A DNA stretch of 64,000 nt, taken from the NCBI RefSeq assembly GCF_004353825.1, contig NZ_SMNA01000003.1:186001-250000 (forward strand), given 5' to 3'. The stretch comes from Occultella glacieicola (GTDB lineage: Bacteria > Actinomycetota > Actinomycetes > Actinomycetales > Beutenbergiaceae). Positions 1-20,014 of this stretch are shown piece by piece; positions within the stretch are counted from its first letter, which is position 1, and each line of letters opens with the position of its first letter. Both the position numbers and the translations under genes were made by a program. The notes under the pieces are model-generated. The model searched no databases. It saw nothing but the letters and a program-made list of their open reading frames with translations, and was not told the DNA's origin.

Positions 1-281
1 CCGACGGCCTCGGCGGCAGCGAGGTCCACCACACCGTCGAGGCCGACGGCCGGGTGCACGAGCAACCGGCAGCGCCGCATCCGTCCCAGCACGGCCGCGT
101 CGAGCGGGTATCGACGGGCCGCGTCGCCCACCACGAGGTCCGCCCGGGCGAGGTCCGGCACCAGCACCTCCAGCGGTGCCCCGTCGGCGAGCACCACCTC
201 GACGGGTTCGTCGAGGTCGGCGACCCAGGACTCGACGAGCGCACGCGGGTAGGCGGACAGGCACACCAGCACCGTGCTCAT
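1..281 (-). CDS. D-isomer-specific 2-hydroxyacid dehydrogenase family protein (N-terminal part; runs off window)
   Basis: Manual translation from ATG at 281: MSTVLVCLSAYPRALVESW...ADLVVGDAARRYPLDAAVLGRMRRCRLLVHPAVGLDGVVDLAAA, resembling the substrate-binding domain (xVGxDxVDLxAA). ATGA overlap with the stop of the upstream gene. Confidence 0.7.
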   Translation of the reverse strand, partial: MSTVLVCLSAYPRALVESWVADLDEPVEVVLADGAPLEVLVPDLARADLVVGDAARRYPLDAAVLGRMRRCRLLVHPAVGLDGVVDLAAAEAV

Positions 282-1477
282 CGCTCGGCCCCCACGACCC
301 GCTCGGCGACCACGGTGGCCCGATCGATCGCCATGCCGAGTCCCGGAGCGGTGGGGGCGGCGACGTGGCCGTCGACCGGGCGGATCGGGGCCGCGAGGAA
401 GTGCTGGTACATCGGCATCAACCGGTCCAGGTACTCCATCTGCGGGATCAGCGCGGGCGAGGCCGCGAACGTCACCGCGGCATTGCACTGCAACGACTGA
501 CCGTGTGGGATGAGCTGCCCGCCGGCGGCGCTGATCAGCGCGATGATCTTCGTGGTCTCCGAGATGCCGCCGTCCCAGTGCGGGTCGGGCTGGTACAGAT
601 CGAGGGTGTCGGTGGCGATCAGGTCGGCGTATCCCCAGCGGCCGTACTCATGTTCCCCACCGGCGATCCGTACACCGTCGGGCAGGCGGTCGCGCAGGGT
701 CCGGTACCCGGCCGCCTGGTCGGCGAGCAGCGGCTCCTCGATCCAGGTCAGGCGCAGATCGCGGGTGGCGTGGGCGACGTCGAGCGTGAACGGCACGTCC
801 CAGCCGCTCCACGCGTCCAGCATGATGTCGATGTCCGGGCCGGCCGCGTCGCGCACCGTGCCGACGAGTTCGACGACGGCGTCCACCCCGGCCCGACCGT
901 CCTCGGGGCCCCAGCGCGGGAACCACTTCAGCCCGCGATAGCCGGCGCCGACGAGTTCCGTGGTGCGGGCCGCGACCCGCTCCGGCTCCAGGCTGTCCCC
1001 GAGCGTGGACACGTAGGCGGGGACCTCGGTGCGGGTCGGTCCACCGAGGAGCACGTGGGCGGGTACGCCGAGGTGCTGGCCACGGATGTCCCAGAGCGCG
1101 CAGTCGACGGCGGAGAGCGCCACCATCCCGGCGCCACGGCGCCCGTGGATCGAGGAGCGGTACAGCACGTCCCAGATCCGTTCGGTCGCGAGCGGGTCGG
1201 TGCCCAGCAGCAGCGGGCGCAACGTGCGCATGATGATGAACGCCTGCTCCGGCGAGAGCTGCGCGGTGCTCCCCACCAGGTGGGTGTCGGTCTCGACGTG
1301 CAGGAACGTCGAGCGGATCTCGTACCGGCCCGGGGCGACCTCCGCGAACTCCTGTGGTCCGGTCCCCCGGAACTGCGGGTAGATGTCGTTCGGGCGGCGC
1401 AGCCGGTCGGCGAAGATCGGCTCGGGGGCGGCCAGGTGCCCGACGTACTCGACGCACCTGACGTCGGTGATGATCAC
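278..1477 (-). CDS. Mandelate racemase/muconate lactonizing enzyme family, L-rhamnonate dehydratase-like acid-sugar dehydratase
   Basis: C-terminal part of ORF 278..2671; GTG start overlaps the MFS stop. Motifs SAVDCALWDI, GPEDGRAG, MLDAW, WIEEPL, GGEHE, QPD, LIPHG. Confidence 0.85.
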   Translation of the reverse strand: MIITDVRCVEYVGHLAAPEPIFADRLRRPNDIYPQFRGTGPQEFAEVAPGRYEIRSTFLHVETDTHLVGSTAQLSPEQAFIIMRTLRPLLLGTDPLATERIWDVLYRSSIHGRRGAGMVALSAVDCALWDIRGQHLGVPAHVLLGGPTRTEVPAYVSTLGDSLEPERVAARTTELVGAGYRGLKWFPRWGPEDGRAGVDAVVELVGTVRDAAGPDIDIMLDAWSGWDVPFTLDVAHATRDLRLTWIEEPLLADQAAGYRTLRDRLPDGVRIAGGEHEYGRWGYADLIATDTLDLYQPDPHWDGGISETTKIIALISAAGGQLIPHGQSLQCNAAVTFAASPALIPQMEYLDRLMPMYQHFLAAPIRPVDGHVAAPTAPGLGMAIDRATVVAERVVGAER

Positions 1478-2703
1478 GGGGTGTCCTCTCGGTCGGTGCG
1501 TTGCGGGGCCGTGCGTGCGGGCTCCGGCTCCGGTTCCGGCTCCCGGCGGGACAGCATGGGCACCAGCCCCATGATGCCCACGACGGCGACGACGGCCGCA
1601 CCCGCGAGCAGTGCGCCGTCCCCGCTCCAGGCGGTACCGGCCACGAAGGCGAGCACGGACGCCCCGGCCGCGGTTCCGCCGTCGAACGCCGCGTTCCAGA
1701 CCGCGCTGGCGGTCGGCGCGTCCTCCTCGGGAACCGCCCGGTAGCTCAGGTCCAGCAGGACCGTCTGCATGCCCCCGTAGGTGAGGCCGAACAGGGCCGC
1801 ACCGACCATGAGCGTGCCCACCGCATCGTTCGCGAGGCCGTGCGCGGCCAGGAGCAGGCCGACGACGCCGGCCGCGAGCAGCAGCGGGTACAGGCCGCGG
1901 TGACCGATCCGGTCGGTGAGGTGGCCGATGCGCCAGCGGGCCACCATGCCGACGGCCCCGTAGAGCAGCAGGGCGGCCCCGGCGGTGGAGCCGGCGGGCA
2001 GTTGCAGCGGCAGGATCGTGACCAGGCCACCCCCAGCCGCGGTGACGGCCAGCAGCACCGCTGCCGGCATCAGCAGCGGCAGCAGGACGCGGCGCCACGA
2101 CGTGGCCCCATCCTTCGGGCCGCCGAGCGGCACGGTGGAGACCGAGCGGGCCGCGAACAGGGCCAGCACCGGCACGAACCCGAGCGCAGCGACGACGACG
2201 AAGGCCCCGCCGAGGGTCAGCGCGGCACCGCCGGCGATGCCGAGCATCATCGGGATCGCGGCCGCCAGGCCGAAGATGCCGATCGCCTCCCCCCGGCGGT
2301 GGACGGGCGCCGCGCGGGGGATCGCGAGCGCGCCGACCACGGTCACGATGGCGAACCCGACGCCCCGCACCGCCGAGATCGCGTACAGGGCCCAGAGGTC
2401 GGTGCCGAGCAGGTACAGCGGCGTCGGCAGGCCGAGCAGCAGGCAGCCCGCGATCAGCAGGGTGCGCGTGGAGTACCGGCGCATCAGGGTCGCCGAACTG
2501 AGCTGGGTGATCACGGTGACGCCCAGCATCACCCCGGTCACGGTCCCGACCACGGTGTCCGCATGGCCCTGCTGTGCTGCCCAGGCCGGCAACGCGGAGA
2601 GCGTGATGGAGAAACTGGTCAGGCCGGCGAAGCAGAGCACGAAGACCGCGCGGATCTCCTTGATCGCCCACAGCGACCCGGTGCGGGTACCGACGACGCT
2701 CAC
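1474..2703 (-). CDS. MFS transporter
   Basis: About 12 hydrophobic segments, motif GHLTDRIGHR, GTGA overlap with the upstream stop. Confidence 0.85.
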   Translation of the reverse strand: MSVVGTRTGSLWAIKEIRAVFVLCFAGLTSFSITLSALPAWAAQQGHADTVVGTVTGVMLGVTVITQLSSATLMRRYSTRTLLIAGCLLLGLPTPLYLLGTDLWALYAISAVRGVGFAIVTVVGALAIPRAAPVHRRGEAIGIFGLAAAIPMMLGIAGGAALTLGGAFVVVAALGFVPVLALFAARSVSTVPLGGPKDGATSWRRVLLPLLMPAAVLLAVTAAGGGLVTILPLQLPAGSTAGAALLLYGAVGMVARWRIGHLTDRIGHRGLYPLLLAAGVVGLLLAAHGLANDAVGTLMVGAALFGLTYGGMQTVLLDLSYRAVPEEDAPTASAVWNAAFDGGTAAGASVLAFVAGTAWSGDGALLAGAAVVAVVGIMGLVPMLSRREPEPEPEPARTAPQRTDREDTP

Positions 2704-3941
2704 CGGGCCACCTCGAACAGGGGGCCGGAACGGTCGACGGCGGTGCGTGCGACGAGCCGTCCGGCTCGCCAGACGAGGCGCTCGGCGGGGGCGAGCGCGA
2801 CCGCGTCGCGGACGGAGTCCGCGCGGATCGCGACCAGGTCGGCGCGTGCGCCCGGCACGGGGCCGGCCGGGGCGCGGCCGATCACGGCGCGCGCGTCGGC
2901 GCTGACCATGGACCACGCGCGCTCCGGGCTCTGGTGCGCCGCGGTGACCACGAGCGAGGCGGTCTCGAGCGGGTCCAGCCGGCCGGTCGGGTTGAACGGG
3001 TCGCGCGTGTTGTCGCCCCCGGCCGCGACCCGGACACCGGCCGCCAGGAGGGCGTCGACGGCGGTCAGGCCACGGGGCCGGGGCCAGGCGTCGCGGCCCT
3101 GCAGGTACAGGTTCGTCGCGGGCAGGGTCACCACCGATACCCCGGCCGCGGCGGCCTCGGCCGCCACGTCCGCGACCACGCCGGGGGCCTGGAACCCGAG
3201 GGAGACGCAGTGGCTCGCCGTGACCGGGACCCCGGCCTGCGGGGCCAGCCCGGCCAGCCGGCGCAGCAGCAGCATGTCCGGGTCGGAGGTCTCGTCGAGG
3301 TGCAGGTCGACCGGCACACCCCGCTCGGCGGCGACCGCCACGCACTCCTCGAGGGCGGCGACCGGGTCGACCTCGTTCGAGGGGTTGCCCCCCACGGCGT
3401 CGGCGCCGGCGTCCAGGGCGTCGGTGAGGCGGGTCCGGTGCCGGCGCCAGGTCTCCCCCGGCCCCGGGCCGCCCACATGGGCGACCAGCTCCAGGTCGAC
3501 GACCTCGCTCAGCTCCTCCCGGACCGCTGCCAACGAGGCCACCGCACGCACCCCGAGAAGGCGACCGCACCCCACGTGCGTGCGCACCGCCGTCGTCCCG
3601 TTGGCGACGAGGGCGCGCAGCGCGCGAGCGGCCCTGGCCCGCACGTCCGCGTCGCTCGCGTGCGCCAGGATCGTGGCGTACCCGGCCATCGCCCCGGTCA
3701 GGGTGCCGTCGCCGGCGGGGACCCGGTCCGCGGTGAACACCTTGTCCAGGTGCGCGTGCGGTTCCACGAACGCCCCGGCGAGCAGGTACCCGGACAGGTC
3801 GGTGCTCGGTCCGGCAGTGCAGTTCGTGCCGTTCGGGCAGGAGCCGGCCGGGTGCACGGCGGCGACCAGGTCGCCCTCGATGCGGACGTCGACGCGCTCA
3901 CCGGTGGGCAGGTGCCCGCCGCGCAGGAGGTGCGTGGTCAT
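2700..3941 (-). CDS. Amidohydrolase, cytosine deaminase (CodA)-like
   Basis: Metal-binding motifs EPHAHLDK, VRTHV, DLHLDE, SHC, GGDNTRDPF. Confidence 0.85.
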   Translation of the reverse strand: MTTHLLRGGHLPTGERVDVRIEGDLVAAVHPAGSCPNGTNCTAGPSTDLSGYLLAGAFVEPHAHLDKVFTADRVPAGDGTLTGAMAGYATILAHASDADVRARAARALRALVANGTTAVRTHVGCGRLLGVRAVASLAAVREELSEVVDLELVAHVGGPGPGETWRRHRTRLTDALDAGADAVGGNPSNEVDPVAALEECVAVAAERGVPVDLHLDETSDPDMLLLRRLAGLAPQAGVPVTASHCVSLGFQAPGVVADVAAEAAAAGVSVVTLPATNLYLQGRDAWPRPRGLTAVDALLAAGVRVAAGGDNTRDPFNPTGRLDPLETASLVVTAAHQSPERAWSMVSADARAVIGRAPAGPVPGARADLVAIRADSVRDAVALAPAERLVWRAGRLVARTAVDRSGPLFEVAR

Positions 3942-4823
3942 TCAGCCCTTCACCCCGCCGCCCGCGATCTGGGTGACGTACCGCTGCAGGTACCCGAAGA
4001 TGGCCAGCACCGGGATCATCACGAGCACACCGGCCGCGAGGAGTCGGCCCCAGTCCGTGGTGAACTCCCCGATCAGGGAGTTCAGACCCACCGACAGGGT
4101 GCGCTTGGCGTCGGTGTCGATGAACGTGTTCGCATACAGGAACTCCTCCCACACCTGGATGATCGTGAACACCGCCGCGGCCATCACGCCGGGCAGCGCC
4201 GGGGGCAGGACCACCTGCCACAACGCCCGGAACCGGGAGCACCCGTCGATGAAGGCCGCCTCCTCGGTCTCCACCGGTACGGCCATGAAGTAGTTGCGCA
4301 TGAGCCAGATGCAGAAGGGCAGGGCGAACGAGACGTAGACCAGGATCAGGCCGACCAGGGAGTCCAGCAGACCGAGCGTCTTCACGGTGATGAACAGCGG
4401 GATCGCGAGCATGACCGCCGGGAACATCTGCGCGGCCACGACGATGAGCAGCATGCCCCGGTTCCCGATGAACGTGAACCGGGCGAACCCGTAGCCGGCG
4501 AGGATCGCGAGCAGCAACGCGATCGTGGTGGTCGCCGCCGCGACGATCACGGAGTTGGCGAAGTAGGTGAAGAAGTTCGTGTCCGCGATCTTCTCGTAGT
4601 TGCCGAGGTACAGGCCGCTCGGGAACAGGCTCTTGTCGACACCGTTCAGTTCCTGCGGCGTCTTGAACGAGGACAGCACCATCCAGGCGAACGGCAGCAG
4701 GGTGCCGAGCAGGAGCAGGACGGCGACGGCGTGGGCGCCGGGCGAGGCGTACCGCCGCTCCCGGCGGCGGGGCCGGGTGGGCGACTTCCGTCGGGCCGGG
4801 AGGGTCTCGTCGACGATGCTCAC
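3942..4823 (-). CDS. Carbohydrate ABC transporter permease (MalG-type)
   Basis: EAA loop ETEEAAFIDGCSRFRALWQVVLP; GTG at 4823 overlaps the upstream stop. Confidence 0.9.
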   Translation of the reverse strand: MSIVDETLPARRKSPTRPRRRERRYASPGAHAVAVLLLLGTLLPFAWMVLSSFKTPQELNGVDKSLFPSGLYLGNYEKIADTNFFTYFANSVIVAAATTTIALLLAILAGYGFARFTFIGNRGMLLIVVAAQMFPAVMLAIPLFITVKTLGLLDSLVGLILVYVSFALPFCIWLMRNYFMAVPVETEEAAFIDGCSRFRALWQVVLPPALPGVMAAAVFTIIQVWEEFLYANTFIDTDAKRTLSVGLNSLIGEFTTDWGRLLAAGVLVMIPVLAIFGYLQRYVTQIAGGGVKG

Positions 4824-5770
4824 CGCTTGTCTCCCTTGCGTCCCTCGACCACGTAGAAGTACACGACGGCGACGGCCATCATCATCACGAAGATGATCAC
4901 GGAGATCGCGGCGGCCCTGCCGAAGTCGAACTCGATGAAGGCGGTCCGGTAGGCCATCGTGGTGAGGATCTCGGTGGCGCCCACCGGTCCGCCGCGGGTG
5001 AACAGCCAGATGCCGTTGAAGTTGTTGATCGCGCCGGAGATCGTGGTCAGGGTGACCAGGGCGAGTGACGTGCGGATCCCGGGGACGGTCACGTTCCGGA
5101 ACCGCTGCCAGGCGTTCGCGCCGTCCATCATCGCGGCCTCGTGCTGCTCCGGCGGGATCTGCTGCATCCCGGCGAGCAGGATCACGGCCGTGAACGGCGT
5201 CCACTTCCAGGCGCTGATCAGGACCAGGACGGGGAGTACGAACCGGGTGTCGGCGAGCCAGACCGGCGGGTTCTCCCAGAGTCCGGTGTCCCGGAGCAGC
5301 CCGTTGATGGGGCCGGAGACGGGGTCGAGCAGGAACCGCCAGATCAGCGCGACCAGCACGGTCGGCACCACCCACGGCACGATCAGGGTGGTCCGGACGG
5401 CGCCCCGGGCGAACAGCCTCTTGTTCAGCGTGTTCGCGATGACCAGGCCGAGGCCGACCTGCACGATGAGCGCGGCTCCGGCCCAGGTGAGGGTGCGGCC
5501 CATGACGAGCCAGAACGTCGGGTCGCCGAACAGAGCCGTGAAGTTGTCGAGGCCGGCGAACGTGTCCTGCCCCGGCGCGAGCAGGCTCGCGTTCAGGAAG
5601 CTGGTGCCGATCGCGTTGAACACCGGATAGCCGATGATCAGGGCGATGGCCAGGAAGGCGGGTCCGATGTAGAGGATCGGTGCCAGTCGTTGCCTGCGGA
5701 CGCGCTGCTTACGCGCATGGGCCGCCTGCTCCGGGGTGGTGCGGGGGCGCTCAGTGGTGATCGTTGCCAT
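4820..5770 (-). CDS. Carbohydrate ABC transporter permease (MalF-type)
   Basis: EAA loop EQHEAAMMDGANAWQRFRNVTVP, FAGLDNF, TRGGP. Confidence 0.9.
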   Translation of the reverse strand: MATITTERPRTTPEQAAHARKQRVRRQRLAPILYIGPAFLAIALIIGYPVFNAIGTSFLNASLLAPGQDTFAGLDNFTALFGDPTFWLVMGRTLTWAGAALIVQVGLGLVIANTLNKRLFARGAVRTTLIVPWVVPTVLVALIWRFLLDPVSGPINGLLRDTGLWENPPVWLADTRFVLPVLVLISAWKWTPFTAVILLAGMQQIPPEQHEAAMMDGANAWQRFRNVTVPGIRTSLALVTLTTISGAINNFNGIWLFTRGGPVGATEILTTMAYRTAFIEFDFGRAAAISVIIFVMMMAVAVVYFYVVEGRKGDKR

Positions 5771-5836
5771 GGTCTTCCTGGCTCGGGTCCGGAAGCCGGC
5801 CGCCCCGGGGGTCGGGGCGGCCGGCTCGCCTGCGGA

Positions 5837-7132
5837 CTAGCTGGAGAGCTTCTGATTCGTCTCTTCCGCGGCTGCGGCGAGGGCGTCGGCGGGGGCCTGC
5901 TGGCCCTGGATGACGGCGTCCCACATGTTCGCCATGACCCCCCACTCGATGTCGCCCCAGATGGGCAGGGCCGGTCGCGCCCTGGCGACCTCCATCTGTT
6001 CGACGAAGGTCTGCCGGACCGGGTCCTCGGCGGTCCACTCGGAGTCGATGACGTCCCGGCGTCCGGGAATGTTGCCGGTGTCCTGGATGTAGGGCATCTG
6101 CTCGGTGGCGGTGAGCCAGCTGACCAGTTCCCAGGCCAGGTCGGACTGGGTGGAGTTGTGGCCGACGCTGATCGTGGTGCCGCCGAGGATTGACGCCGAC
6201 CCGGTGCCCGCGGGGAGCGGGGCCACGGCCCAGTCCAGATCCGGGTTGCCCTCCTCGATCGGCGCGGTGCCCCACGGCCCGGTCGCCATCATGGCGCAGC
6301 GGCCCTGCACGAACGGGGCGACGTACTGGTCCCAGCTGGCATTGGCGCCGACGAACTCCGGCGGCATCACCTTGTCCTCGAGGACGAGCCCGGAGTAGAA
6401 CGCGAACGCTTCCTGGCCGAGGTCGTCCGCGAACGTCGCGGTGGTGAGGTCCTCGCTGAGGATGGTCCCGCCGTTCTGCCACAGCCAGGGCCAGAACAGG
6501 AACGCGCCGTAGCCCTGGGCGCCCATCATGTAGCCGTACTGATCTCCGCCGGTCAGCTCGATCGCGGCGTCCCGCAACTCCTGCCAGGTGGTCGGGACCG
6601 CGATCCCGGCACCGTCGAGCAGTTCGCGGTTGTAGAAGAGGCCCACGTTGTTCGTCGTGTACGGCAGTCCGAAGAGTCCGCCGTCGTAGCTCGAGCTCGC
6701 GAGCAACTCGTCGCCGAAGTCGCCGGTGACCGCGTCCGCCTTGTCGGTGACGTCGGCCAGCACCTGCGCGGCCGCGAGTTGCGGCACCGACGAGACGTCG
6801 ACGATCGCCACGTCCGGACCGGAGCCACCGCTGCTGGTGGTGGTCAGCTTCGGGACCAGGTCCTGGGTCGGGATGCCCTGGACGTTCACGGTCACGCCGT
6901 TGGCCTCACCCCAGGCCCGGACCGCGCGCTGCAGCCCGGAGTCCGAGTCGCCGGCGACGCCCGCGTTGGCCCAGAGTTCCAGGGTGCCGCTCCCGGAGGC
7001 GCCGCCACCGGTGGGGTCACTGCCGCCGCCTCCGGAGCCGGTGCCGCACGCGGCGAGGGTGAGGCCGGACGCGACACCGCCCCCGAGGGCGAGCAGCTGG
7101 CGGCGGCTGAGGCGGGGAGAGGGAGTGCTCAT
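5837..7132 (-). CDS. Sugar ABC transporter substrate-binding lipoprotein (Tat signal)
   Basis: MSTPSPRLSRRQLL (twin arginine) and lipobox LAAC; family-1 SBP motifs GPDVA, GLPY, LFYNRELL, PTTWQEL; AAGGA upstream. Confidence 0.9.
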   Translation of the reverse strand: MSTPSPRLSRRQLLALGGGVASGLTLAACGTGSGGGGSDPTGGGASGSGTLELWANAGVAGDSDSGLQRAVRAWGEANGVTVNVQGIPTQDLVPKLTTTSSGGSGPDVAIVDVSSVPQLAAAQVLADVTDKADAVTGDFGDELLASSSYDGGLFGLPYTTNNVGLFYNRELLDGAGIAVPTTWQELRDAAIELTGGDQYGYMMGAQGYGAFLFWPWLWQNGGTILSEDLTTATFADDLGQEAFAFYSGLVLEDKVMPPEFVGANASWDQYVAPFVQGRCAMMATGPWGTAPIEEGNPDLDWAVAPLPAGTGSASILGGTTISVGHNSTQSDLAWELVSWLTATEQMPYIQDTGNIPGRRDVIDSEWTAEDPVRQTFVEQMEVARARPALPIWGDIEWGVMANMWDAVIQGQQAPADALAAAAEETNQKLSS

Positions 7133-7152
7133 GTTCTTCATTCCTTGTCTCT

Positions 7153-8478
7153 TCACTGAGGGGGAGCCATGCGGGAGGGGATGCCCCAGAACTGCGGGAC
7201 GGTGGAACCGATACGGGCGGCGAGGTCGCGGACCACCGACGACGCCTCCTCGGCGAGAGCGACATCGTCGGCAACCGTGAGTGCGCCGTCGCGCAGGATG
7301 TGCCGGCCGGCCACGACCACGTCGGTGACGTGGGCGGGCGCGGCGCGGTGGACGACGGACCACACCGGGTCCGCCAGCGGCTGCACGGCCGGGGCCGTGA
7401 GGTCGAGACGCACCAGGTCGCCGGCGTCGAAGCCTGCCGGCAGCCCGAGGGCGCGGGCGCCCGCCCCGGTCGCCATGTCGAAGGCGCGGCTCGAGGTCAG
7501 CGCACCGGGATCGCCGGCTGCCTGCCCCTGGGCGTAGATCGCCTGGCGCATCTCGTGGAAGGGGCTTTCCATGCCGTCGACGCCGAGGGTGACGGTGGCG
7601 CCCGCGTCGAGCAGGTCGACGACCGGGGCGAAGCCCTTCGCGAAGCGCAGGTGGTTCGTGGGGCAGTAGGCGACCACGGCGCCGCTGGCGGCGATCAGCT
7701 CGATCTCGGCGTCGCTGAGCCTGACGCCGTGGACCAGGACGGTGCCCGGGCGCAGGAACCCGGCGTGGTGCAGGAGTTCGACCGGGCGGACACCGTGCTC
7801 GGCGCGGCAGGCGTCGACCTCGGCCTGGGTCTCGGCGATGTGGGTGTACAGCCGCACCCCGAGCCGCTCGGCGGCGCGTGCGGCCACGGCGTAGTCGTCG
7901 GGGGCGTTCGAGCGCATGGACACCGGCGCGAGGTAGAGCTGCTCGCGCGGCAACAGCACGTCCGCGGCCCGCTCGGCGAGCGCCACCACGTCCTCGACCG
8001 AGGTGCACAGCCGCTCCGCTCCCCTGGTCATGATGCCGAGCGCGAGGTAGCCGCGCAGACCCACGGCCCGGTGCCCGGCGACGACCGCCTCGAGCAGGCC
8101 GTCGCGGTGCAGCGGGTAGACGTGGTCCACGACCGTGGTCACGCCGGCCCGCACCTGCCGGGCCGCGGACAGCGCCGTCAGAGCCCGGTACTCGGCCGGC
8201 CCGGCGACGGCCTGGGTGGCCGACGAGGCGGTGATCGCCGTCGCCAGCGACGCGCCCTCGGAGGCCCGCCCGGTGGGCAGGAACGAGCGCAGGTGGTCGT
8301 GCATGTTGATCAGGCCGGGCAGCAACGCCGCGGCGGCGGTGTGCCGGGCGCCGTCGCCGGCGGCGCCCTCGACCCGCAGCCGACCGCCGTCGACCGTGGC
8401 GGTCGCCGGCCAGGGCTCGCTCGTCGCATCGGCGACGGCGATCCCGGTCAGGTCGCTCGGGGTGGTCACGTCGGTCAC
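7153..8478 (-). CDS. Amidohydrolase family (COG0402 purine/pterin deaminase or chlorohydrolase type)
   Basis: LPGLINMHDHL, GVTTVVDH, YTHIAET, LVHGV, CPTN, LGVDG; GTGA overlap with the upstream stop. Confidence 0.85.
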   Translation of the reverse strand: MTDVTTPSDLTGIAVADATSEPWPATATVDGGRLRVEGAAGDGARHTAAAALLPGLINMHDHLRSFLPTGRASEGASLATAITASSATQAVAGPAEYRALTALSAARQVRAGVTTVVDHVYPLHRDGLLEAVVAGHRAVGLRGYLALGIMTRGAERLCTSVEDVVALAERAADVLLPREQLYLAPVSMRSNAPDDYAVAARAAERLGVRLYTHIAETQAEVDACRAEHGVRPVELLHHAGFLRPGTVLVHGVRLSDAEIELIAASGAVVAYCPTNHLRFAKGFAPVVDLLDAGATVTLGVDGMESPFHEMRQAIYAQGQAAGDPGALTSSRAFDMATGAGARALGLPAGFDAGDLVRLDLTAPAVQPLADPVWSVVHRAAPAHVTDVVVAGRHILRDGALTVADDVALAEEASSVVRDLAARIGSTVPQFWGIPSRMAPPQ

Positions 8479-10561: not shown

Positions 10562-11454
10562 TGGTCCTTCTCTCTCGTGGTGGGGATCACGTGCTGGTCG
10601 GGTCCGCCGCTGGTCGACGGCGGAAGGAGGGCTTCGCGCAACAGTCCGGCCGCGCATCGGCGGCGGTAGTGCGCGCTGGCGCGCAGGTCGTCGATGGGGC
10701 TGATGTCGGCATCGACGGCAGCGACCGCGGCGTCGACGACGTCCGGGGTCGGGGAACGTCCCTCGAGCGCGGCCGCGGCGGCGTGCAGCCGCACCACGGT
10801 CGGTGCGACGGCGCCCATCGCGAGCCGGACGTCGGTGAGCCGACCGTCCGGCTCCCGGCACCACTGCCAGGCGAGGTTGAGGAACGAGATGGCCTGGGCG
10901 CGCCGCCCGCCGATCTTGCGGAACCCGCCCTCCGGGCTCGGCCGCGGGACGCGCACGCTGGTGACCCACTCGCCGGCGGTCAGGTCCACCCGGCGGGGTC
11001 CGAGCAGGAAGTCCGCGAGCGCCACGGTGCGCCGACCGCCGTCGGGCGTGACGATCTCGACCACCGCGTCCGCGGCGAGCAGGGCCGGGACGGTGTCCGC
11101 GGCCGGCGAGCCGGTGACCAGGTTGCCACCGATGGTGGCGCGGTTGCGGATCGTGGTCGAGGCGAACGCCTCGATGGCGGCGCTCAGGGCCGGGAAGGCA
11201 CCGGCGCACCCGGCGGCGACGTCGGTCAGCGGGTGCACGGCGGAGATCCTCAGCTCGCCCGTGCCGGGGTCCCGGGTGGCGGCGGGGCGCGTGGACGCGA
11301 GCCCGGTGAGGTCCACCAGGGTGGGCGCCTCCAGCCCGTCGCGGCGCTGCACGAGCAGGTCGGTGCCGCCGGCGACGGCCCGGGCCCCGGTCAGCAGCCG
11401 GGACACGTCCGCCGTCCCCTCCGGGCGCAGCAGGGTCGGGGTCGGCGGCGTCAT
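10558..11454 (-). CDS. Xanthine dehydrogenase/CODH-family FAD-binding subunit
   Basis: VAGGTDL, IRNRATIGGNL, SPAAD, ISPIDDLRASAHYR. Confidence 0.9.
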   Translation of the reverse strand: MTPPTPTLLRPEGTADVSRLLTGARAVAGGTDLLVQRRDGLEAPTLVDLTGLASTRPAATRDPGTGELRISAVHPLTDVAAGCAGAFPALSAAIEAFASTTIRNRATIGGNLVTGSPAADTVPALLAADAVVEIVTPDGGRRTVALADFLLGPRRVDLTAGEWVTSVRVPRPSPEGGFRKIGGRRAQAISFLNLAWQWCREPDGRLTDVRLAMGAVAPTVVRLHAAAAALEGRSPTPDVVDAAVAAVDADISPIDDLRASAHYRRRCAAGLLREALLPPSTSGGPDQHVIPTTREKDQ

Positions 11455-11918
11455 GCGTCACCGCCCGCGCGGCGGGCCGAGGCGGCGTCGTGGACCGCGT
11501 CGTAGAACCGGTTGTAGGCGGTGCACCGGCACAGGTTGCCGTCGAGCGCCGCACAGATCTGGTCGTCGCTCGGGTCCCGCTCGCGGTCCAGGAGAGCGGC
11601 GCAGGAGTTCAGGACACCGGGGATGCAGTAGCCGCACTGGATCGCCTGCCGGGCGACGAATGCCTCCTGGAGTGGGCCGTGCCCTGCCGCAGCGAGCCCT
11701 TCCACCGTGCGGATCTCCGCGTCGAGGACCTGACCCACGAGCACCAGGCAGGACGTCATGGCGCGCCCGTCGATGACCACGGTGCAGCTGCCGCACTCCC
11801 CCATGCCGCAGCCCTCCTTCGCGCCGGTCAGGGCGAGGTGGTCGCGCAGGTAGTCGAGCAGGCGCATGCCGTGGTCGGCCGGCGCCGGGGTGGGGACCGG
11901 CGATCCGTTCACGCGCAT
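11451..11918 (-). CDS. Xanthine dehydrogenase-family (2Fe-2S)-binding subunit
   Basis: GAKEGCGMGECGSCTV, QCGYCIPG, GNLCRCTAY. Confidence 0.92.
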   Translation of the reverse strand: MRVNGSPVPTPAPADHGMRLLDYLRDHLALTGAKEGCGMGECGSCTVVIDGRAMTSCLVLVGQVLDAEIRTVEGLAAAGHGPLQEAFVARQAIQCGYCIPGVLNSCAALLDRERDPSDDQICAALDGNLCRCTAYNRFYDAVHDAASARRAGGDA

Positions 11919-14155
11919 GGTGACTCCTCGATCAGGGCCAGCATTCGTTCCGGTGTCACGGGTAGCACCTGCGGCAGCACCCCGACCGCGTCCCGGATCG
12001 CGGCAGTGATCGCCGGCGGGGTCGGCACCACGACGACCTCGGACATGCCCTTCGCGCCGAACGGCCCGGAGTCCTCGCTGCCCTCGACGAACAGCGTGTG
12101 CATCCGGGGGGTGTCCGCGATCGTCGGCACCAGGTAGTTCTCGAGGCTGGTGGTGCGCGGCACGCCCTCACTGACCCGGTGGTCCTCCATGATCGCCAGG
12201 CCGAGGCCCTGCAGGATGCCCCCCTCGGCCTGCCCGATGGTGGCGGCCGGGTTGATCGGGGTGCCGCAGTCGAGCACGCACAGCAGCTCCGGCACCCGGA
12301 CCTCACCGGTCAGGGCGTTCACCTCGACCCGCACCACCTGGGTGCAGGTGCCGTAGACGCGATGCGGTGCGAACGTCGCGAGCTGCTCCGGCGGCACGAT
12401 GCCGATGTCATCGGTGTCCGGGAGCCGGAACTCGGCGTTCACCTCCGCTTCGCCGAGTTCGATCAGTTTCGTACCGACGCCTGCGGCGTCCGTGGCCAGC
12501 GGCAGGCCGAGGCCGCGGCACCGTTCGACGAGTTCGTCGCACGCCGCGCGCACCGCGGCACCGCCGGCATAGGTGGAGCGCGACGCCGCCGTCGGCCCCG
12601 ACTCCGGCACCGCGCCGGTGTCCCCCACGCGCACGTCGATGGTGTCGATCGGCAGGCCGAGTGCGTCCGCGGCGACCTGCCCGTACGTGGTCTGGATCGA
12701 CTGTCCGGTGTGGTTCGGCCCGGCCCAGATGGTGATCTGCCCGTGGTCGTCGATCGACAGGCGCGCCCGGGCGGTGTCCCCGGTGCCCGAGCCCATGCCG
12801 ACGCCCTTCATCGCGACGGCGATGCCGGTGCCGCGGCGCCAGGGGCCGGTCGCCTCCGCCTGCCACCGGTGTCGTTGCGCCCACAACGGATGGTCGACGG
12901 CGGTGCGCAGGGTCTCGCGCACGTTCAGGCTCGTCGTGGTCCGGTGCCGGTAGAGGCTGTGGCGGTCGCCGCGGTCGAGCACGTTCCGCAGGCGGATCTG
13001 CGCGGGGTCGAGGCCGAGTTCATGGGCGGCCTCGGTGATCGCGTTCTCGATCGCGAACGCGACCTGGGGCACGCCGTAGCCGCGGAACGCGCCGGCGTTG
13101 GCGTTGTTCGTGTAGTAGACGGTGCCGTCGAAGGCGGCGACGTCGAAGCCATAGGGCCCGGTGGACATCTCTGCCGACGTCTTCATCACGTTCGGGCCGG
13201 AGGTGATGATCGGGCCGGTGTCCGCGACGGCGCGCACGGACGAGCCGAGGATCCGGCCGTCCGCGGCGAACCCGATGTCGATCGAGGTCCAGAACGGGTG
13301 CCGTTTCGCGCCGGCCGCCATGACCTCCTCACGGGTCATGTGCACATGGACCGGGGCACCGGCCGCACGGGCCAGCAGCGCGAGGAAGACCGGCATCGGG
13401 TCGTCGTTGCGGGACCCGAACGCGCCGCCGACGGGGTTCGCGATCATCCGGACGGACTCCGCCGGGATGTCCAATGCGCGCGCGACCTTGCGCTGGTGCA
13501 GGCCCGGGTTCTGGGAGCCGCACCAGATGGTCACGGACTCCTCCTCGGCGTTCCAGGAGGCCACGCCGCCCGGCGTCTCGATCGCCACGTGCTCCTGCGC
13601 GGGGGTGTGCACCGAACGACGCAGCACCAGGGCCGCGCCGGCGATGGCAGCCTCGACGTCGCCCGAGGAGAACGCAATGTTGCCGGACACGTTCCCGCTC
13701 GCGTGCAGTTGCGGGGCGGCGGCGGCGGCCGCCGCGGCCGGCCCGTCGACCACGGGCAGCGGGGTGAGCTCGAGGCGGATCAGGTCGGCGGCCCGCTGGG
13801 CGGTGGTCGCGTCCGTGGCCGCGATCAGCGCGATGGCCTCGCCGACCTGGCGCACCACGGCATCCGCCAGAGCCGGACCGTCGACAGCCCGCGGACCGAG
13901 CGCGTTGACCGGCACGTCGGCCGCGGTCACCACGGCCCTCACGCCCGGCAGGGCGAGCGCCTCGCTGACGTCGATCGCGTCGATGCGGGCGTGCGGCACC
14001 GCGCTGCGCAGCACGTGGCCGTGCAGCATGCCCTCCTCACGCCGGTCGGTGACGTAGGTGATCGCGCCGGTGACGATGTCGTGGCCCTCGAGCGCGGGCC
14101 GGGACCGGCCGACCCACGGGGCGGGCCGGCCGGCCACGGGGGCGGGCGCCGTCAT
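11909..14155 (-). CDS. Xanthine dehydrogenase-family molybdopterin-binding subunit
   Basis: RSAVPHARI, VGGAFGSR, GAFRGYGVPQ, GPTAASRST, GQAEGGILQGLG, GAKGMSE. Confidence 0.92.
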   Translation of the reverse strand: MTAPAPVAGRPAPWVGRSRPALEGHDIVTGAITYVTDRREEGMLHGHVLRSAVPHARIDAIDVSEALALPGVRAVVTAADVPVNALGPRAVDGPALADAVVRQVGEAIALIAATDATTAQRAADLIRLELTPLPVVDGPAAAAAAAAPQLHASGNVSGNIAFSSGDVEAAIAGAALVLRRSVHTPAQEHVAIETPGGVASWNAEEESVTIWCGSQNPGLHQRKVARALDIPAESVRMIANPVGGAFGSRNDDPMPVFLALLARAAGAPVHVHMTREEVMAAGAKRHPFWTSIDIGFAADGRILGSSVRAVADTGPIITSGPNVMKTSAEMSTGPYGFDVAAFDGTVYYTNNANAGAFRGYGVPQVAFAIENAITEAAHELGLDPAQIRLRNVLDRGDRHSLYRHRTTTSLNVRETLRTAVDHPLWAQRHRWQAEATGPWRRGTGIAVAMKGVGMGSGTGDTARARLSIDDHGQITIWAGPNHTGQSIQTTYGQVAADALGLPIDTIDVRVGDTGAVPESGPTAASRSTYAGGAAVRAACDELVERCRGLGLPLATDAAGVGTKLIELGEAEVNAEFRLPDTDDIGIVPPEQLATFAPHRVYGTCTQVVRVEVNALTGEVRVPELLCVLDCGTPINPAATIGQAEGGILQGLGLAIMEDHRVSEGVPRTTSLENYLVPTIADTPRMHTLFVEGSEDSGPFGAKGMSEVVVVPTPPAITAAIRDAVGVLPQVLPVTPERMLALIEESPCA

Positions 14156-15480
14156 GCGTCCTCCTCCGCGGCCCAGGCGAGCGCGGCGGCTGCGGTCCAG
14201 GACTGGTCCCGGCTGCCCAGTGCGGCACCCGAAACCGCGTCGTAGTACTCGGCGAAGGTGCCGTCGGCGAGTTGGCGGCGGCCGGCGGCTGCGATCGCGT
14301 CGGCCGCTTCGCTCTCACCGTGGTGGCGCAACGCCCACGTGAACAGCCAGGTGATCACGGGCCACTGCGGGCCGCGCCAGTAGTTCCGGCTCACGAACAC
14401 GGGGCTGTCCGGGGACGTGGTCGGTGGCAGCGGGTTCGCGAGGCTGGCGTGACCGCACCAGGCGGGGCCGAGCAGGTCGGCGACCAGCCGGGTGTACTCC
14501 CGGGGCTCGGCGCCGCAGATCAGCGCGGCGAACCCGCCGATCGTGCTCGCGGTCAACCACTCACCGGCGCGCATGTCGTAGTCGCGGGCGTGCCCGGTCC
14601 CGGGGTCCACGGTCGCGGCGACGGCGGCCCTCGCCCGGGCGGCCATCTCCCGCAGCGTGGCTGCCTCGGTGGTGCGGCCCAGCCGCGTCCCGAGCCTGGC
14701 CAGCAGGTCCGCGGACAGGGCGTGGACGGCCGTGAAGAACACGTCACCGACCCGGAAGTCGATCACCTCGCGGGCCGCGGCGTCGTCGTAGCGCACCGAG
14801 ACGAGCTGTTCGACGAGCCAGAGGTAGCGGTCGTAGTCGGCATCGGCCGGCCGCTCGCCGGAGTCCGCCACGTGCTTGGTGTCCTCGCGGATGTACGGGG
14901 CCATCTCCCCGACCCGCACCCGGGCGCACGCGGCATCCCAGCGCGGCGAGTTGTCCATGCCGGACTCCCACGGATGGTGGATCTCGATGAGCCCGCTCGG
15001 GTGCGTCCCCCGGGCGTCGTCGAGCCACGTGTGCCAGGCCAGCCACGCGTCGAAGGTGTCGGCGAGGAAGAGGTCGAACGCCTCGGCGTCGGCGCCGCCG
15101 TTGCGGTGGGCCTGCTCGCCGATGATCCAGACAGCGAGACTATGTACGGCCGGTTGACAGATACCGGAGGTAACGACGTCGGAGGGCGCGGCCGCGAGGC
15201 CCACCGTCCGCCATCGCTGCGGCCCGGGGAAGTAGCCGGGCTCGGCACTGAAGAGGATCTGCGGGATCATCCCGGTGCGCCACTGGCCGCGCAGCAGGTG
15301 GCGCAGTTCGTCGAGCGCGCGCGGCACGGAGACCGTTCCCCAGCCGATCGCCACAAATGCGGCATCCCAGGACCACTGGTGCGGGTACAGCAGCGGCGCG
15401 GCGACCGTCTGTTCGCCCCGGTCATTGGCACGCAGCACGTCGGCGGCCGCGTGTGTGAGCGGTGTGGCGAGGTCGGGCAT
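14152..15480 (-). CDS. GH63/MGH1-like glycoside hydrolase (glucosylglycerate/mannosylglycerate hydrolase family)
   Basis: LYPHQWSWDAAF, HPWESGMDNSPRWD, YWRGPQWP, FAEYYD, QSWTAA; AAGGA upstream of ATG 15480. Confidence 0.88.
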   Translation of the reverse strand: MPDLATPLTHAAADVLRANDRGEQTVAAPLLYPHQWSWDAAFVAIGWGTVSVPRALDELRHLLRGQWRTGMIPQILFSAEPGYFPGPQRWRTVGLAAAPSDVVTSGICQPAVHSLAVWIIGEQAHRNGGADAEAFDLFLADTFDAWLAWHTWLDDARGTHPSGLIEIHHPWESGMDNSPRWDAACARVRVGEMAPYIREDTKHVADSGERPADADYDRYLWLVEQLVSVRYDDAAAREVIDFRVGDVFFTAVHALSADLLARLGTRLGRTTEAATLREMAARARAAVAATVDPGTGHARDYDMRAGEWLTASTIGGFAALICGAEPREYTRLVADLLGPAWCGHASLANPLPPTTSPDSPVFVSRNYWRGPQWPVITWLFTWALRHHGESEAADAIAAAGRRQLADGTFAEYYDAVSGAALGSRDQSWTAAAALAWAAEEDA

Positions 15481-15508
15481 CTTCGTCCTTCGGGGGTCCG
15501 GCTTGATC

Positions 15509-15536
15509 AACACGAATTGTGTTCGCGTGCTGAACA
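15509..15536. promoter_or_regulatory. Candidate ROK operator(s) in the divergent promoter
   Basis: Overlapping inverted repeats AACAC-N5-GTGTT (15509-15523) and TGTTC-N7-GAACA (15520-15536) in an AT-richer intergenic patch. Confidence 0.45.
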
Positions 15537-15663
15537 TAACTGCTTGTTCCGCGGAGGTCAACGTGCCATCATGACGACACGCCGCCGGTGCTCCAGCGAG
15601 TCGGCGGCGCCGAGGGGACCGGAGTTGGATCCGTTCCCCGGACCGATCGACGAAGGCAGGACG

Positions 15664-16956
15664 ATGGCAACGGACACCTCCGGACCGCCCACCGTCGCGG
15701 TGCCCGCGGGACAGCCGGCGACAGCCCTTCCGGCGACCTCCCACGGCGCGCTGGTGTCCTTCATCCGGTCCCGGCCGGGCTGGACCCGGCAGCAGCTCCT
15801 CGCCGCGACCGGGCTGTCCCGCACCACCCTGTTCGACCGTCTGGACGCCCTGTTCCAGCACGGCTACGTCTTCCAGGACGGTTCCGCACCGGCCGGCGCC
15901 GGAGGTCGTGGGCCGGGCCGTCGCTCGGAGTTGCTGCGCTGGGACACCCGCGGCCGGGTGGTGCTGGTCCTCGACCTGGGGCAGACCCACGCACGGATCT
16001 GTGTCACCACGGTCGGTGGCGGGAGCCAGCGGATGCGAGACGTCGCCATCGACATCGACACGGACGCACCCGGCTATCTGGCGCAGGTCACCGAGATCGG
16101 GGACGTGCTCCTGCGCGCCGGGACCGACGAGACCCTGATCGGCGTGGCGCTCGGCATCCCCGGTCCGGTCGACCCGGGCACGGGGGTGCTCGGCACCTCC
16201 ACCACGATGCCCCGCTGGGAGGGCTACCCGGTCTCCGAGAGCCTGCGCGAGCGCTGGGGGGTGCCCGTGGTCATCGAGAACGACGCCCGGGCGTTCGCCC
16301 TCGGCGAGTCCAGTGTGATCGGAGGCGACCGGTCGGTACTCGCGATCAAGTACGCGACCGGCATCGGTGCCGGGATCGTGGACACCGGCCATGTGCTGGA
16401 GGGCTCCGACGGCGCCGCCGGGGACATCGGCCACGTCCGGATCAGTGACGACGGCCCGGTGTGCACCTGCGGGCGCCGCGGCTGCCTGGCCGCCTGGGCC
16501 TCCGGTCACGCCCTGATCCGGCGCCTGGCCGAGACCGGCGTGCGAGACCTGAAGGACATCACCGAGCGCGTCGCGGCCGGCGATCCGGTGGTCTGCGCCG
16601 CCGTCGACGATGCTGCCGCACGCCTGTCCCGCGTGCTGGCCACCGTGGTCGCCGCGGTCAACCCGGACAACCTGGTGCTCGGCGGCTCGCTCGGTCGGCT
16701 GCCCAGGGTGGTGGCCCGGATCGATGCGCTGATCCGCGAGGACGTGACCGAACGCGCGCGCCGCCACCTCGTGGTGGGGGCCGCCCACCTCGGCGCCGAC
16801 GGCGCGGTGGTCGGCCTCACCCGCAAGGTGGTCGACCTCGTCTACGACCCCGCCGTGATCGACGCCGCGATCGCGGCCGGTGGTGCCGAGCGGCACGCGG
16901 GTGTCGCCGGACCGGCCGACCCGGTGCGCCCCGGCGCCGAGCACGCGCCGGCATGA
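15664..16956 (+). CDS. ROK family transcriptional regulator
   Basis: N-terminal HTH (TRQQLLAATGLSRTT, GPGRRS), GIPGPVD, IENDARAFALGE, GDIGH, CTCGRRGCL zinc motif. Confidence 0.92.
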   Translation: MATDTSGPPTVAVPAGQPATALPATSHGALVSFIRSRPGWTRQQLLAATGLSRTTLFDRLDALFQHGYVFQDGSAPAGAGGRGPGRRSELLRWDTRGRVVLVLDLGQTHARICVTTVGGGSQRMRDVAIDIDTDAPGYLAQVTEIGDVLLRAGTDETLIGVALGIPGPVDPGTGVLGTSTTMPRWEGYPVSESLRERWGVPVVIENDARAFALGESSVIGGDRSVLAIKYATGIGAGIVDTGHVLEGSDGAAGDIGHVRISDDGPVCTCGRRGCLAAWASGHALIRRLAETGVRDLKDITERVAAGDPVVCAAVDDAAARLSRVLATVVAAVNPDNLVLGGSLGRLPRVVARIDALIREDVTERARRHLVVGAAHLGADGAVVGLTRKVVDLVYDPAVIDAAIAAGGAERHAGVAGPADPVRPGAEHAPA

Positions 16957-18308
16957 GCGCATCCGCGTCGACCGGGCCAGGGGCATGGCTGCGGCGAGCC
17001 GACCCCGGCTATCCGTCACGCCGTGCGGGCCTCTCGGTCTCGGCCTGGCAGCCGCCTCGCCCGATGCCCGCCGCCATCGCCACCCCCCACACCCCCGACG
17101 AGGTGGTCGAGGCCGTGCGGCGCGCCCGCGCCGAGGGTCTGCGGCTCGCGGTCCGCGGTGGTGGTCACTCCCTGAGCGCGACCCACCTCGTCGACGGCGC
17201 GGCCGTCCTCGACCTGAGGCACCTCACCCGCTTCGACGTGAAACGCGAGTCCGCGACGGCCTGGGTCGGTCCTGGCGTGACCACCCTCGCGGCCGCGGCA
17301 GCCCTGGATGCCGTGGAACTCTCCTTCCCGGTCGGACACGCACCGACCGTGGGTTTGTCCGGCTTCCTACTTGCCGGTGGCAACGGCTGGAACACGCCGG
17401 TCTGGGGCCATGGCTGCGAGCGGGTGCTCGCCGCGGACGTCGTGTTCGCCGACGGACGCCGAGCGGTCGTCGACGACGAGACGGATCCGGACCTCTTCCG
17501 GGTGCTGCGCGGCGCCGGGCCGGCGTACCCCGGCGTCGTGGTGGCGTTCCGGCTGCAACTGGCGCCCGAGCCACCCCGGATCAGGCGGCACGTGGTCGAG
17601 GTCGACGCCCGCGACGCCGAGCGGGTCGGCGCGACCTTGGACGAGGTGGTGGCCACGCTCCCGGCGCACGTCGACACGACCGTGTTCTGGCACCCGGCCC
17701 GCGCGGACGACGACGTCCCGACCCTGACCGTCGCCGCCACGTCGTTCGCACCCGGTATTGACGACGGCCTCGACCCGATCCGCTCGGCAGACCTACCGGT
17801 GCTCTCGACCGCCTCAACGGACGCCGGCCGGTCGCTCTTCCAACTCCTCGACCCGCTCCCGCGCCACGAGGGGGACGCCATGTTCTCCGACCACCTCTGG
17901 ACCGACGCCGGCTACCGGGCACTGCTCCCGCTGCTGCCCACCCGCGACCCGCGCCTGAACGCCGCCTCGAGCGTGCTGCTGACGACCTCCGCACGGCGCG
18001 CCGACGGTGCGGCACCGGGCCGAGCCGTCTATTCGCCGTCGGGAAGGATGAGCGTCTCCGCCTACGCCCACTGGGATCCGGCCTCCCAGGGCCCCGAGCA
18101 CCCGGTCGGCTGGGCCCGCCAGGTCATCGCCCGCCTGGCGCACCTGGGCAACGGCTGCTATGTGGGCGAGGCGGACCTCACTGCCGGCCGGGCCACGCTC
18201 ACGGATTGCTTCGGCGGCGCCGGGGCCGACCTCGTGCGACGCGTGGTCGCCCGACTCGACCCCGACCGCGTCATGGCCACGCCGTTCACCGGGCACCACG
18301 GAAGCTGA
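16953..18308 (+). CDS. FAD-binding oxidoreductase (VAO/BBE-like, covalent-FAD motif)
   Basis: AVRGGGHS, PVGHAPTVGLSGFLLAGG, DLFRVLRGAG, C-terminal RLDPDRV; ATGA overlap with the ROK gene. Confidence 0.82.
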   Translation: MSASASTGPGAWLRRADPGYPSRRAGLSVSAWQPPRPMPAAIATPHTPDEVVEAVRRARAEGLRLAVRGGGHSLSATHLVDGAAVLDLRHLTRFDVKRESATAWVGPGVTTLAAAAALDAVELSFPVGHAPTVGLSGFLLAGGNGWNTPVWGHGCERVLAADVVFADGRRAVVDDETDPDLFRVLRGAGPAYPGVVVAFRLQLAPEPPRIRRHVVEVDARDAERVGATLDEVVATLPAHVDTTVFWHPARADDDVPTLTVAATSFAPGIDDGLDPIRSADLPVLSTASTDAGRSLFQLLDPLPRHEGDAMFSDHLWTDAGYRALLPLLPTRDPRLNAASSVLLTTSARRADGAAPGRAVYSPSGRMSVSAYAHWDPASQGPEHPVGWARQVIARLAHLGNGCYVGEADLTAGRATLTDCFGGAGADLVRRVVARLDPDRVMATPFTGHHGS

Positions 18309-20011: not shown

Positions 20012-20014
20012 CGC

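Follow-up and report, generated by a model that had tools for sequence, protein, structure and literature searches.

A conserved actinobacterial operon built around an opine dehydrogenase and its possible role in the breakdown of glucosylated pterins

Introduction

Two described bacterial pathways stand closest to an operon that we analysed at the left end of a 64,000-nt stretch of the 5.3-Mb genome of Occultella glacieicola (contig NZ_SMNA01000003.1, positions 186,001 to 250,000; hereafter, the window). The first is the oxidative lumazine pathway of Cupriavidus sp. LA-1, formed by PDA, LuDH, DHLI and the UbiD/UbiX-type XCDC (PMC12391406). This described bacterial pterin pathway, solved only in 2025, takes pterins with a free C6, which its route requires, and the word biopterin is not mentioned in the main text of the paper (PMC12391406). 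The C7 hydroxylation of lumazine by XOR-family enzymes and the deamination of pterins by CDA-like proteins (PMC12391406) are also treated in PMC9513972. The second, the reductive urate/2,8-dioxopurine pathway, employs XdhD, YgfK/UacX or a putative F420-LLM enzyme, and SsnA, such that a reductase works with a COG0402 hydrolase that opens the ring; for YgfK/SsnA, the reduced product was detected only when the hydrolase was coupled (PMC12507026). Cyanobacteria contain abundant alpha-glucosylated pterins (PMC3546692; PMC13259868); in the literature that we searched, nothing was found on the microbial use of pterins with side chains, these glucosides included.

Judged by its genes, the operon is a real, conserved catabolic unit that works like a hybrid of the two pathways. 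We give about an even chance to the view that it imports and reductively dismantles alpha-glucosides of 6-substituted pterins, freeing the side chain as a sugar acid. Its widespread core is a triad of an LLM-family oxidoreductase, an opine dehydrogenase (ODH) and a COG0402 metallo-amidohydrolase (AH1). For this triad we lean slightly towards a broader role, as the route that has been lacking for pterins substituted at C6 (biopterin, neopterin, monapterin, hydroxymethylpterin and their glucosides), in which the pteridine condensation would be reversed and the pyrazine ring would pass through an opine to a diaminopyrimidine and a 2-oxo sugar acid, with modules exchanged according to the side chain. 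Pterins were not among the candidates of the initial annotation of this DNA; they are the best fit to the gene exchanges seen between related loci.

Results

The operon and its control region

The 14 minus-strand genes, the divergent ROK gene and the FAD oxidase gene listed in the initial annotation were all recovered by open reading frame (ORF) and family scans, with the families that it had named. The 14-gene unit it described is present, but its true extent is 16 genes: beyond the left edge of the window lie a gene for F420-dependent glucose-6-phosphate dehydrogenase (FGD; TIGR03554, 466 bits against a cut-off of 420) and, as the last gene, a member of the XdhC family. FGD and XdhC also end the cluster in three of the four relatives checked. 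Most junctions had been said to overlap, and 11 of the 15 do, the other four gaps being of 0, 11, 17 and 66 nt. The 16 genes are predicted to form one operon, with a gene order conserved in many actinobacteria; family scans of these genes found no ABC ATPase gene within the operon. The solute-binding protein is present where it had been placed (5837-7132), but its start is most likely at 7141, and the ROK gene is corrected to 15664-16956. The stretch has a GC content of 68-76%, and the features, by position in the window, are as follows.

1..281, minus strand, D-2-hydroxyacid dehydrogenase (HADH), 5' part; 648 nt more lie beyond the window edge
278..1477, minus strand, RhmD-like enolase-superfamily sugar-acid dehydratase (PRK15440, 192 against 393; PDB matches; alignment)
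1474..2703, minus strand, MFS transporter (family scan)
2700..3941, minus strand, CodA-fold deaminase, predicted pterin deaminase (PRK07583, 209 against 403; motifs)
3942..4823, minus strand, ABC permease 2 (family scans)
4820..5770, minus strand, ABC permease 1 (family scans)
5837..7141, minus strand, sugar-type ABC solute-binding lipoprotein (SBP; PF01547; PDB matches)
7153..8484, minus strand, COG0402 metallo-amidohydrolase AH1, predicted lactam-opening hydrolase, core triad (residues)
8475..9587, minus strand, NAD-type opine dehydrogenase (ODH) of CENDH fold, core triad (PF02317; 1BG6, E 9e-55)
9584..10561, minus strand, Mer-like LLM oxidoreductase, predicted C=N reductase, core triad (PDB matches, alignment)
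10558..11454, minus strand, FAD subunit (family scan)
11451..11918, minus strand, 2Fe-2S subunit (ORF and family scans)
11909..14155, minus strand, xanthine-oxidase-family Mo subunit, predicted 7-hydroxylase (Pfam; own clade in tree)
14152..15480, minus strand, GH63 alpha-glucosidase of glucosylglycerate-hydrolase type (NF047898, 590 against 550; 5OHC, E 9e-125)
15517..15539, no strand, 23-bp imperfect palindrome over the -10 box, predicted ROK operator (conserved in 18 loci)
15533..15561, minus strand, sigma-A-type promoter: -35 TTGACC at 15561-15556, 17-nt spacer, -10 TATGTT at 15538-15533 (conserved pattern)
15664..16956, plus strand, ROK-family regulator with N-terminal helix-turn-helix, predicted repressor (PF00480)
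16953..18308, plus strand, BBE/EncM-like FAD oxidase, accessory (PF01565; PDB matches to EncM and 6-HDNO)
In the coordinates of locus L001: HADH 18281-17352, FGD 17334-16312, XdhC 16312-15134

The promoter pattern TTGAC-N17-TANGT was matched upstream of GH63 in 18 of the 21 loci examined. The palindrome, with the consensus TTAYGTTCA-N5-TGAACRTAA, is the sole strong match in the genome (31.9 bits against 17.4 for the next best, with its own site in the training matrix); scanning the genome with this matrix for further regulon members gave none above 17.4 bits. The ROK protein would bind the palindrome as its operator, and the pathway is probably ROK-controlled; ROK is divergent from GH63 in related loci too. 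The FAD oxidase was not found in the loci of Occultella aeris and O. gossypii, and a structure search with it gave no clue to a ligand.

Gene exchanges between related loci

An alignment scan of species genomes yielded 139 relatives, the best 80 of which gave 77 loci, many of them kin or incomplete. In one of these (L061, Anaerolineales), a single operon holds ABC genes, LLM, ODH, IlvD, AH1, acetaldehyde dehydrogenase, 4-hydroxy-2-oxovalerate aldolase and HADH, with IlvD (688 against 618), acetaldehyde dehydrogenase (457 against 282) and aldolase (533 against 286) above their cut-offs; the aldolase is the only 4-hydroxy-2-oxovalerate aldolase found in that genome. A second locus (L060, Streptosporangium) is laid out in the same way, its aldolase genes being decayed and an intact one lying elsewhere in the genome. 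An ODH yields a 2-oxo acid, HADH reduces a 2-oxo acid and a dehydratase removes water; for 4-hydroxy-2-oxovalerate to be formed, the product of ODH would have to be 2-oxo-3,4-dihydroxypentanoate. This compound has the C7-C6-C1'-C2'-C3' skeleton of biopterin, which the L061 gene set would thus match.

Other exchanges fit the side chains of hydroxymethylpterin and of neopterin or monapterin. A glycerate kinase is inserted in two Cellulomonas-type clusters (L025, 232 against 168, and L019), a D-erythronate dehydrogenase (402 against 325) adjoins ODH in L059, and in L041-43 and L067 the triad is followed by Eda-, RraA- and KDG-kinase-like genes, all below cut-offs. Dehydratases of the enolase type (22 loci) and of the IlvD type (six loci) never occur together at the thresholds used; L055 has a short fragment of the IlvD family at its edge, below these thresholds. 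The enolase-type module is always accompanied by GH63 or GH13, and in several relatives the MFS transporter is exchanged for a YitT-like protein. An AMP-binding enzyme is present in 35 of the 77 loci, never with enolase or GH63. The loci with this enzyme (L046-L099, e.g., L078:12438-13886), from Acidimicrobiia and other lineages, often carry glyoxalase-fold proteins and a second COG0402 enzyme.

The triad and the modules around it

Of 400 sampled genomes in the order, 8 have a close ODH orthologue (78-94% identity), and the ODHs of O. aeris and O. gossypii are 93-94% identical to the one studied here. LLM is found in 66 and AH1 in 64 of the 77 loci; both stand beside ODH in 61, in several phyla, whereas among 61 loci with distant ODHs (at most 36% identity; only 17 of these loci are at least 10 kb long) none has the two together. 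LLM, ODH and AH1 would on this account be the core. The Mo subunit (28 loci), the CodA clade (24), the enolase (22) and GH63 (18) are less frequent, and the oxidation, deamination and sugar modules are, as far as the sequences tell, additions to the triad. The triad clades span Actinomycetota, Chloroflexota, Methylomirabilota and other lineages. The initial annotation had named a lack of conserved synteny as a reason to give up its pathway; synteny was found, the full sugar-type set (Mo large subunit, LLM, ODH, SBP, both permeases, enolase and HADH) being present in 19 of the 77 related loci.

The best PDB matches of LLM are to Mer (E 1e-40), those to other LLMs being at 5e-16 or weaker, and LLM scores below the Mer-type cut-offs (192 against 276; 161 against 349). 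That its nearest structures are those of Mer, a reductase with a pterin substrate, was counted as pointing towards pterins. A metagenome locus (L161:1547-11071) carries an LLM together with a Mo enzyme of three subunits and two distantly related (30-31%) opine dehydrogenases, and is possibly a parallel pathway for another heterocycle.

ODH matches 1BG6 (E 9e-55; model TM 0.85 at 32% identity), the model supporting the fold and nothing further, and passes the PF02317 test, with a two-domain fold, GxGxG and the catalytic His/Asp/Arg. The catalytic His and the R..ED motif are invariant or nearly so, and the clade has motifs of its own (NAIDH, KxGG and Trp224). Three tandem ODH paralogues are present in L047 (7766-11128), L071 (2640-5922), L091 and L132; in one tandem paralogue type, found also at L098:12503, the catalytic His is replaced (DAIDTVP motif). 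Genes resembling component B of glycine/sarcosine/betaine reductases adjoin ODH in L073 (13911-16226) and L083 (12290-13558), which suits an N-substituted amino-acid intermediate. In L072, L076 and L087, the neighbours of ODH are genes of reductive purine-type clusters: a YgeW-like carbamoyltransferase with amidohydrolase or XdhD-like genes.

The metal and catalytic residues of AH1 are invariant, with Arg at the position of the deaminase Gln; the protein is below all cut-offs and belongs to a distinct COG0402 clade, 23% identical to SsnA. UbiD neighbours of the triad were considered as xanthine-8-carboxylate decarboxylases, an assignment unsupported at 29-32% identity.

The deaminase and the molybdenum enzyme

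The CodA-fold deaminase retains its metal-binding and catalytic residues, but all 17 aligned members of the clade lack Q156 of cytosine deaminase and have Asn in place of D314. Because the CodA-like protein is without these two cytosine-deaminase residues, glucosyl-hydroxymethylcytosine, a candidate of the initial annotation, is disfavoured. The best family is PRK07583 (209 against a cut-off of 403), which includes Arad3529, a CDA-like pterin deaminase. HLDK and DN..DPF motifs are common to the deaminase, to PRK07583 proteins and to the deaminases of three lumazine-type plasmid clusters, which match the Cupriavidus lumazine cluster in gene content, and the best plasmid match of the deaminase (among 415 records) sits in a lumazine-type cluster. 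Plasmid clusters with that gene content in Ponticoccus, Paracoccus and Ensifer (L102, L104 and L106) carry only generic annotation. A true PRK07583 protein (604 against 403) adjoins the triad in L088, and in L035, L036 and L044 the deaminase slot holds an 8-oxoguanine-deaminase-family protein (528, 545 and 560, against a cut-off of 532) whose motif P[PA][SA]VL is nearer to 2PAJ, an isoxanthopterin deaminase, than to the PCSPF of 8-oxoguanine deaminases. One of these three deaminase types is present in many loci.

The Mo subunit, in which QEH, AFRG and the catalytic Glu are retained, is below all equivalog cut-offs. It fails the test for a canonical xanthine dehydrogenase (XDH), with Asn, Thr, Ser, Val or Ala at the site of the substrate Glu (the E802 position); a canonical-type XDH is encoded on another contig (C18) of the genome. 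The three lumazine-type clusters are within the top 30 of its 1337 plasmid matches. A tree that included subunits from these three clusters, the LA-1 sequence not being among them, led us to reject the Mo subunit as an orthologue of LuDH-type subunits. The Mo enzyme is a predicted 7-hydroxylase.

The sugar module and F420 supply

GH63, which scores above the glucosylglycerate-hydrolase cut-off (590 against 550 for NF047898), keeps D182, E419, Y36, W40, W42, D43, Y88, Q115, G180, R216, Y222, Y375 and W376 in alignments, the list of substrate residues being that of MhGgH (PMC6608630). The GH13 protein that substitutes for it in relatives resembles glucosylglycerate phosphorylase (40-42% identical to YcjM) and keeps the ETN, SHDGIG and YE[IL]N motifs. 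A pocket of the glucosylglycerate type suggests either late removal of glucose from a glucosylated acid or a role of glucosylglycerate as co-substrate. The PDB matches of SBP are sugar binders, and its structure search gave no specific ligand clue. The RhmD-like protein fails the L-rhamnonate dehydratase equivalog (192 against 393), with metal ligands and catalytic His that align with those of E. coli RhmD. The only aldolase-type candidates in the O. glacieicola genome are Eda-, RraA-, FAH- and DHDPS-like.

The genome has cofD and cofE; cofE is present in all five relatives and cofD in 21 of 24 carriers. Six actinobacterial genomes (G000, G063, G100, G263, G291 and G376) have an F420 ligase and no match to FO synthase, four of them also being without cofD; G263 and G376 nonetheless keep F420-dependent glucose-6-phosphate dehydrogenase in the cluster, and FGD was not found in the cluster region of G291. 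Carriers without FO synthase suggest deazaflavin salvage or another cofactor. A strict co-occurrence of F420 with the triad was abandoned on a mixed result, cofD or cofH being missing in several carriers.

The purine neighbourhood

The position of the operon next to purine-catabolism genes had been taken to fit a nucleobase-type aglycone. This argument fails because the adjacency is not conserved: it is kept in none of the five relatives or 77 loci, and the 13 neighbouring purine/glyoxylate genes had no match in ten 18-kb flanks of the five relatives or in the 77 loci, except for the substitute deaminase of L044. The operon looks like an insertion into a purine region, relatives carrying it elsewhere. 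It separates two halves of a region of purine, allantoin and glyoxylate genes, one at 18376-32411 and the other some 8-14 kb to the left of the window edge; the left half has allantoinase-like, glycerate kinase-like, gcl-like and hyi-like genes, and the right half uricase, xanthine permease, malate synthase and 8-oxoguanine deaminase. The region includes a DUF6986 gene (18737-20011; HpcH/HpaI aldolase-citrate lyase fold), coupled to a stand-alone allophanate-hydrolase C-terminal domain (18376-18744). Elsewhere in the window are two long ORFs, at 40267-43716 (about 1150 aa) and 55117-57954 (about 950 aa).

Discussion

If the substrate is a pterin alpha-glucoside, of the biopterin, neopterin or hydroxymethylpterin type, it would be imported and GH63 would take off the glucose, at an early or a later point in the sequence of steps. 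The CodA-fold enzyme would deaminate C2 to give a lumazine, and the Mo enzyme, matured by XdhC, would hydroxylate C7 to give the C7-N8 lactam. As C6 is blocked and the known second hydroxylation is impossible, we propose that the Mer-like LLM would then reduce N5=C6, F420H2 being regenerated from glucose-6-phosphate by FGD. AH1 would hydrolyse the lactam to an N-(diaminopyrimidinyl)-alpha-amino acid, i.e., an opine, an order of reduction and hydrolysis that parallels YgfK/SsnA (PMC12507026). The NAD-dependent ODH would oxidise the opine, releasing a 2-oxo sugar acid and a diaminopyrimidine; HADH, pulling the reaction, would reduce the 2-oxo acid to an aldonate, the RhmD-like enzyme would dehydrate this to a 2-keto-3-deoxy acid, and an enzyme encoded elsewhere would carry out the aldol cleavage. 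In its broad form, as an unassigned conserved pathway that dismantles a sugar-heterocycle conjugate, the initial annotation holds. The operon fails the membership tests for the oxidative lumazine and the reductive urate pathways. Rather than an amino-acid part of the substrate, the opine is more likely an intermediate that arises from ring opening.

Several observations weigh against this route. The aldolase evidence rests on two loci of other lineages; MhpE, MhpF and RhmA have no match in the O. glacieicola genome, so that a side chain of the neopterin type may be the one used here, and MhpE is present in 9 of 20 carrier genomes and not in the other 11. Neither O. glacieicola nor any of the five relatives has a match to cofH (FO synthase), and with cofD and cofE present F420 would have to be salvaged; cofD was not found in G100, G263, G291, G342 and G376, and was missing from several complete carriers. 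In GH63, the entire pocket for glycerate is preserved as in an enzyme that leaves glucosylglycerol uncleaved, and neither GH63 nor the YcjM-like GH13 obviously fits an intact pterin glucoside. The deaminase tree does not decide how the protein relates to lumazine-type and PRK07583 deaminases, and when another member of the family served as query, a purine-type cluster of Aminobacter came out best (174 against 171-172 bits). The Mo subunit forms a clade of its own, not sister to the lumazine-cluster subunits, and groups with a Rhizobium tumorigenes protein; its top plasmid matches lie in other contexts. Identity between the UbiD proteins next to the triad and the UbiD of lumazine clusters is only about 32%. 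Nor does the route account for the AMP-binding enzyme of 35 of the 77 loci or for what becomes of the pyrimidine fragment.

A rival reading is that the same ring chemistry acts on free 6-substituted pterins carried by the MFS transporter, with glucosylglycerate as a separate co-substrate that the ABC system and GH63 turn into glucose for FGD. The GH63 score and its full set of substrate residues, the YcjM-like substitute, the glycerate kinase inserted in two clusters and the FGD gene that closes the operon here and in three of four relatives all speak for such a division. We hold it to be distinctly unlikely, however: one inducer is the better match for genes that all share a single promoter and operator, GH63 or GH13 is a constant companion of the enolase-type module, and no FGD was found in the cluster region of G291. 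The sequence of hydroxylation, reduction, opening and cleavage could also serve a different amino-heterocycle that bears a polyol chain, for instance a polyhydroxyalkyl pyrazine of Maillard type or a glycoside related to it, and lead to a hexonate or pentonate. A Mo enzyme that is not an orthologue of lumazine dehydrogenase, a sugar-type SBP and the Eda- and KDG-kinase-like genes of L041-43 and L067, which fit a hexonate, agree with this idea, which we nevertheless consider unlikely. Fructosazine-type compounds have no exocyclic amine, leaving the deaminase of many loci nothing to act on, and a hexose chain gives no 4-hydroxy-2-oxovalerate.

The specific substrates of the initial annotation, a glycosylated nucleobase (glucosyl-hydroxymethylcytosine or mannosyl-queuosine) or a cytokinin conjugate, were not upheld and now seem very improbable. 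The CodA fold, the alpha-glycosidase family, the 8-oxoguanine-deaminase-family substitute and a pairing of reductase and amidohydrolase that resembles reductive pyrimidine/purine catabolism (PMC12507026) would suit them; against this, the cytosine-binding residues are missing, relatives do not keep the purine genes alongside, the scan of recurrent neighbour families gave no recognisable nucleoside hydrolase or phosphorylase, and ODH, HADH, the dehydratase and the aldolase chain would have no role. Mycosporines, guanine glycation adducts and beta-substituted alanines were also considered and set aside, since with any of them the Mo enzyme, the reductase or the dehydratase would have nothing to do.

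If the pterin route is correct, opine dehydrogenases gain a new role, that of taking a heterocycle apart, cyanobacterial pterin glucosides gain a first catabolic pathway, and functions are assigned to several enzyme clades across Actinomycetota, Chloroflexota, Methylomirabilota and other lineages. Even with a different substrate, the triad would mark an undescribed ring-cleavage logic, and the operon offers a complete proposal that can be tested step by step with commercial substrates. No matching pathway was found in the literature searched, which lacked most subscription papers; Supplementary Fig. 20 of PMC12391406, on actinomycete clusters, could bear on novelty.

Comparison with known systems

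Individual enzymes have relatives in other settings. Mer, the F420-dependent methylene-tetrahydromethanopterin reductase, provides the structures closest to LLM, with no methanopterin C1 context here. GH63 is like MhGgH in score and residues, but stands in a catabolic import operon and not in osmolyte turnover (PMC6608630), and its GH13 substitute in relatives is like the E. coli phosphorylase YcjM. ODH has the fold of CENDH of Arthrobacter sp. 1C (1BG6), together with its own motifs and an invariably heterocycle-catabolic context. With the reductive urate pathway the operon shares a Mo enzyme followed by a reductive dearomatisation coupled to a COG0402 ring-opening hydrolase, and in a feature search with an AH1 orthologue a cluster named after SsnA ranked third (0.97). 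AH1 is, however, only 23% identical to SsnA and below the SsnA cut-off, and in place of HyuA, YgeW/UacY and YgeY as well as YgeX the operon has ODH and a sugar-acid module. With the Cupriavidus pathway it shares a deaminase and a three-subunit XOR-family hydroxylase, the deaminase motifs being common to clusters of that content; the Mo subunit lies in another clade, and tblastn gave no match to DHLI (amidohydrolase 2) or UbiD in the O. glacieicola genome. To this Cupriavidus-type logic the operon adds a reductase, an opine dehydrogenase, a glycosidase and sugar-acid enzymes.

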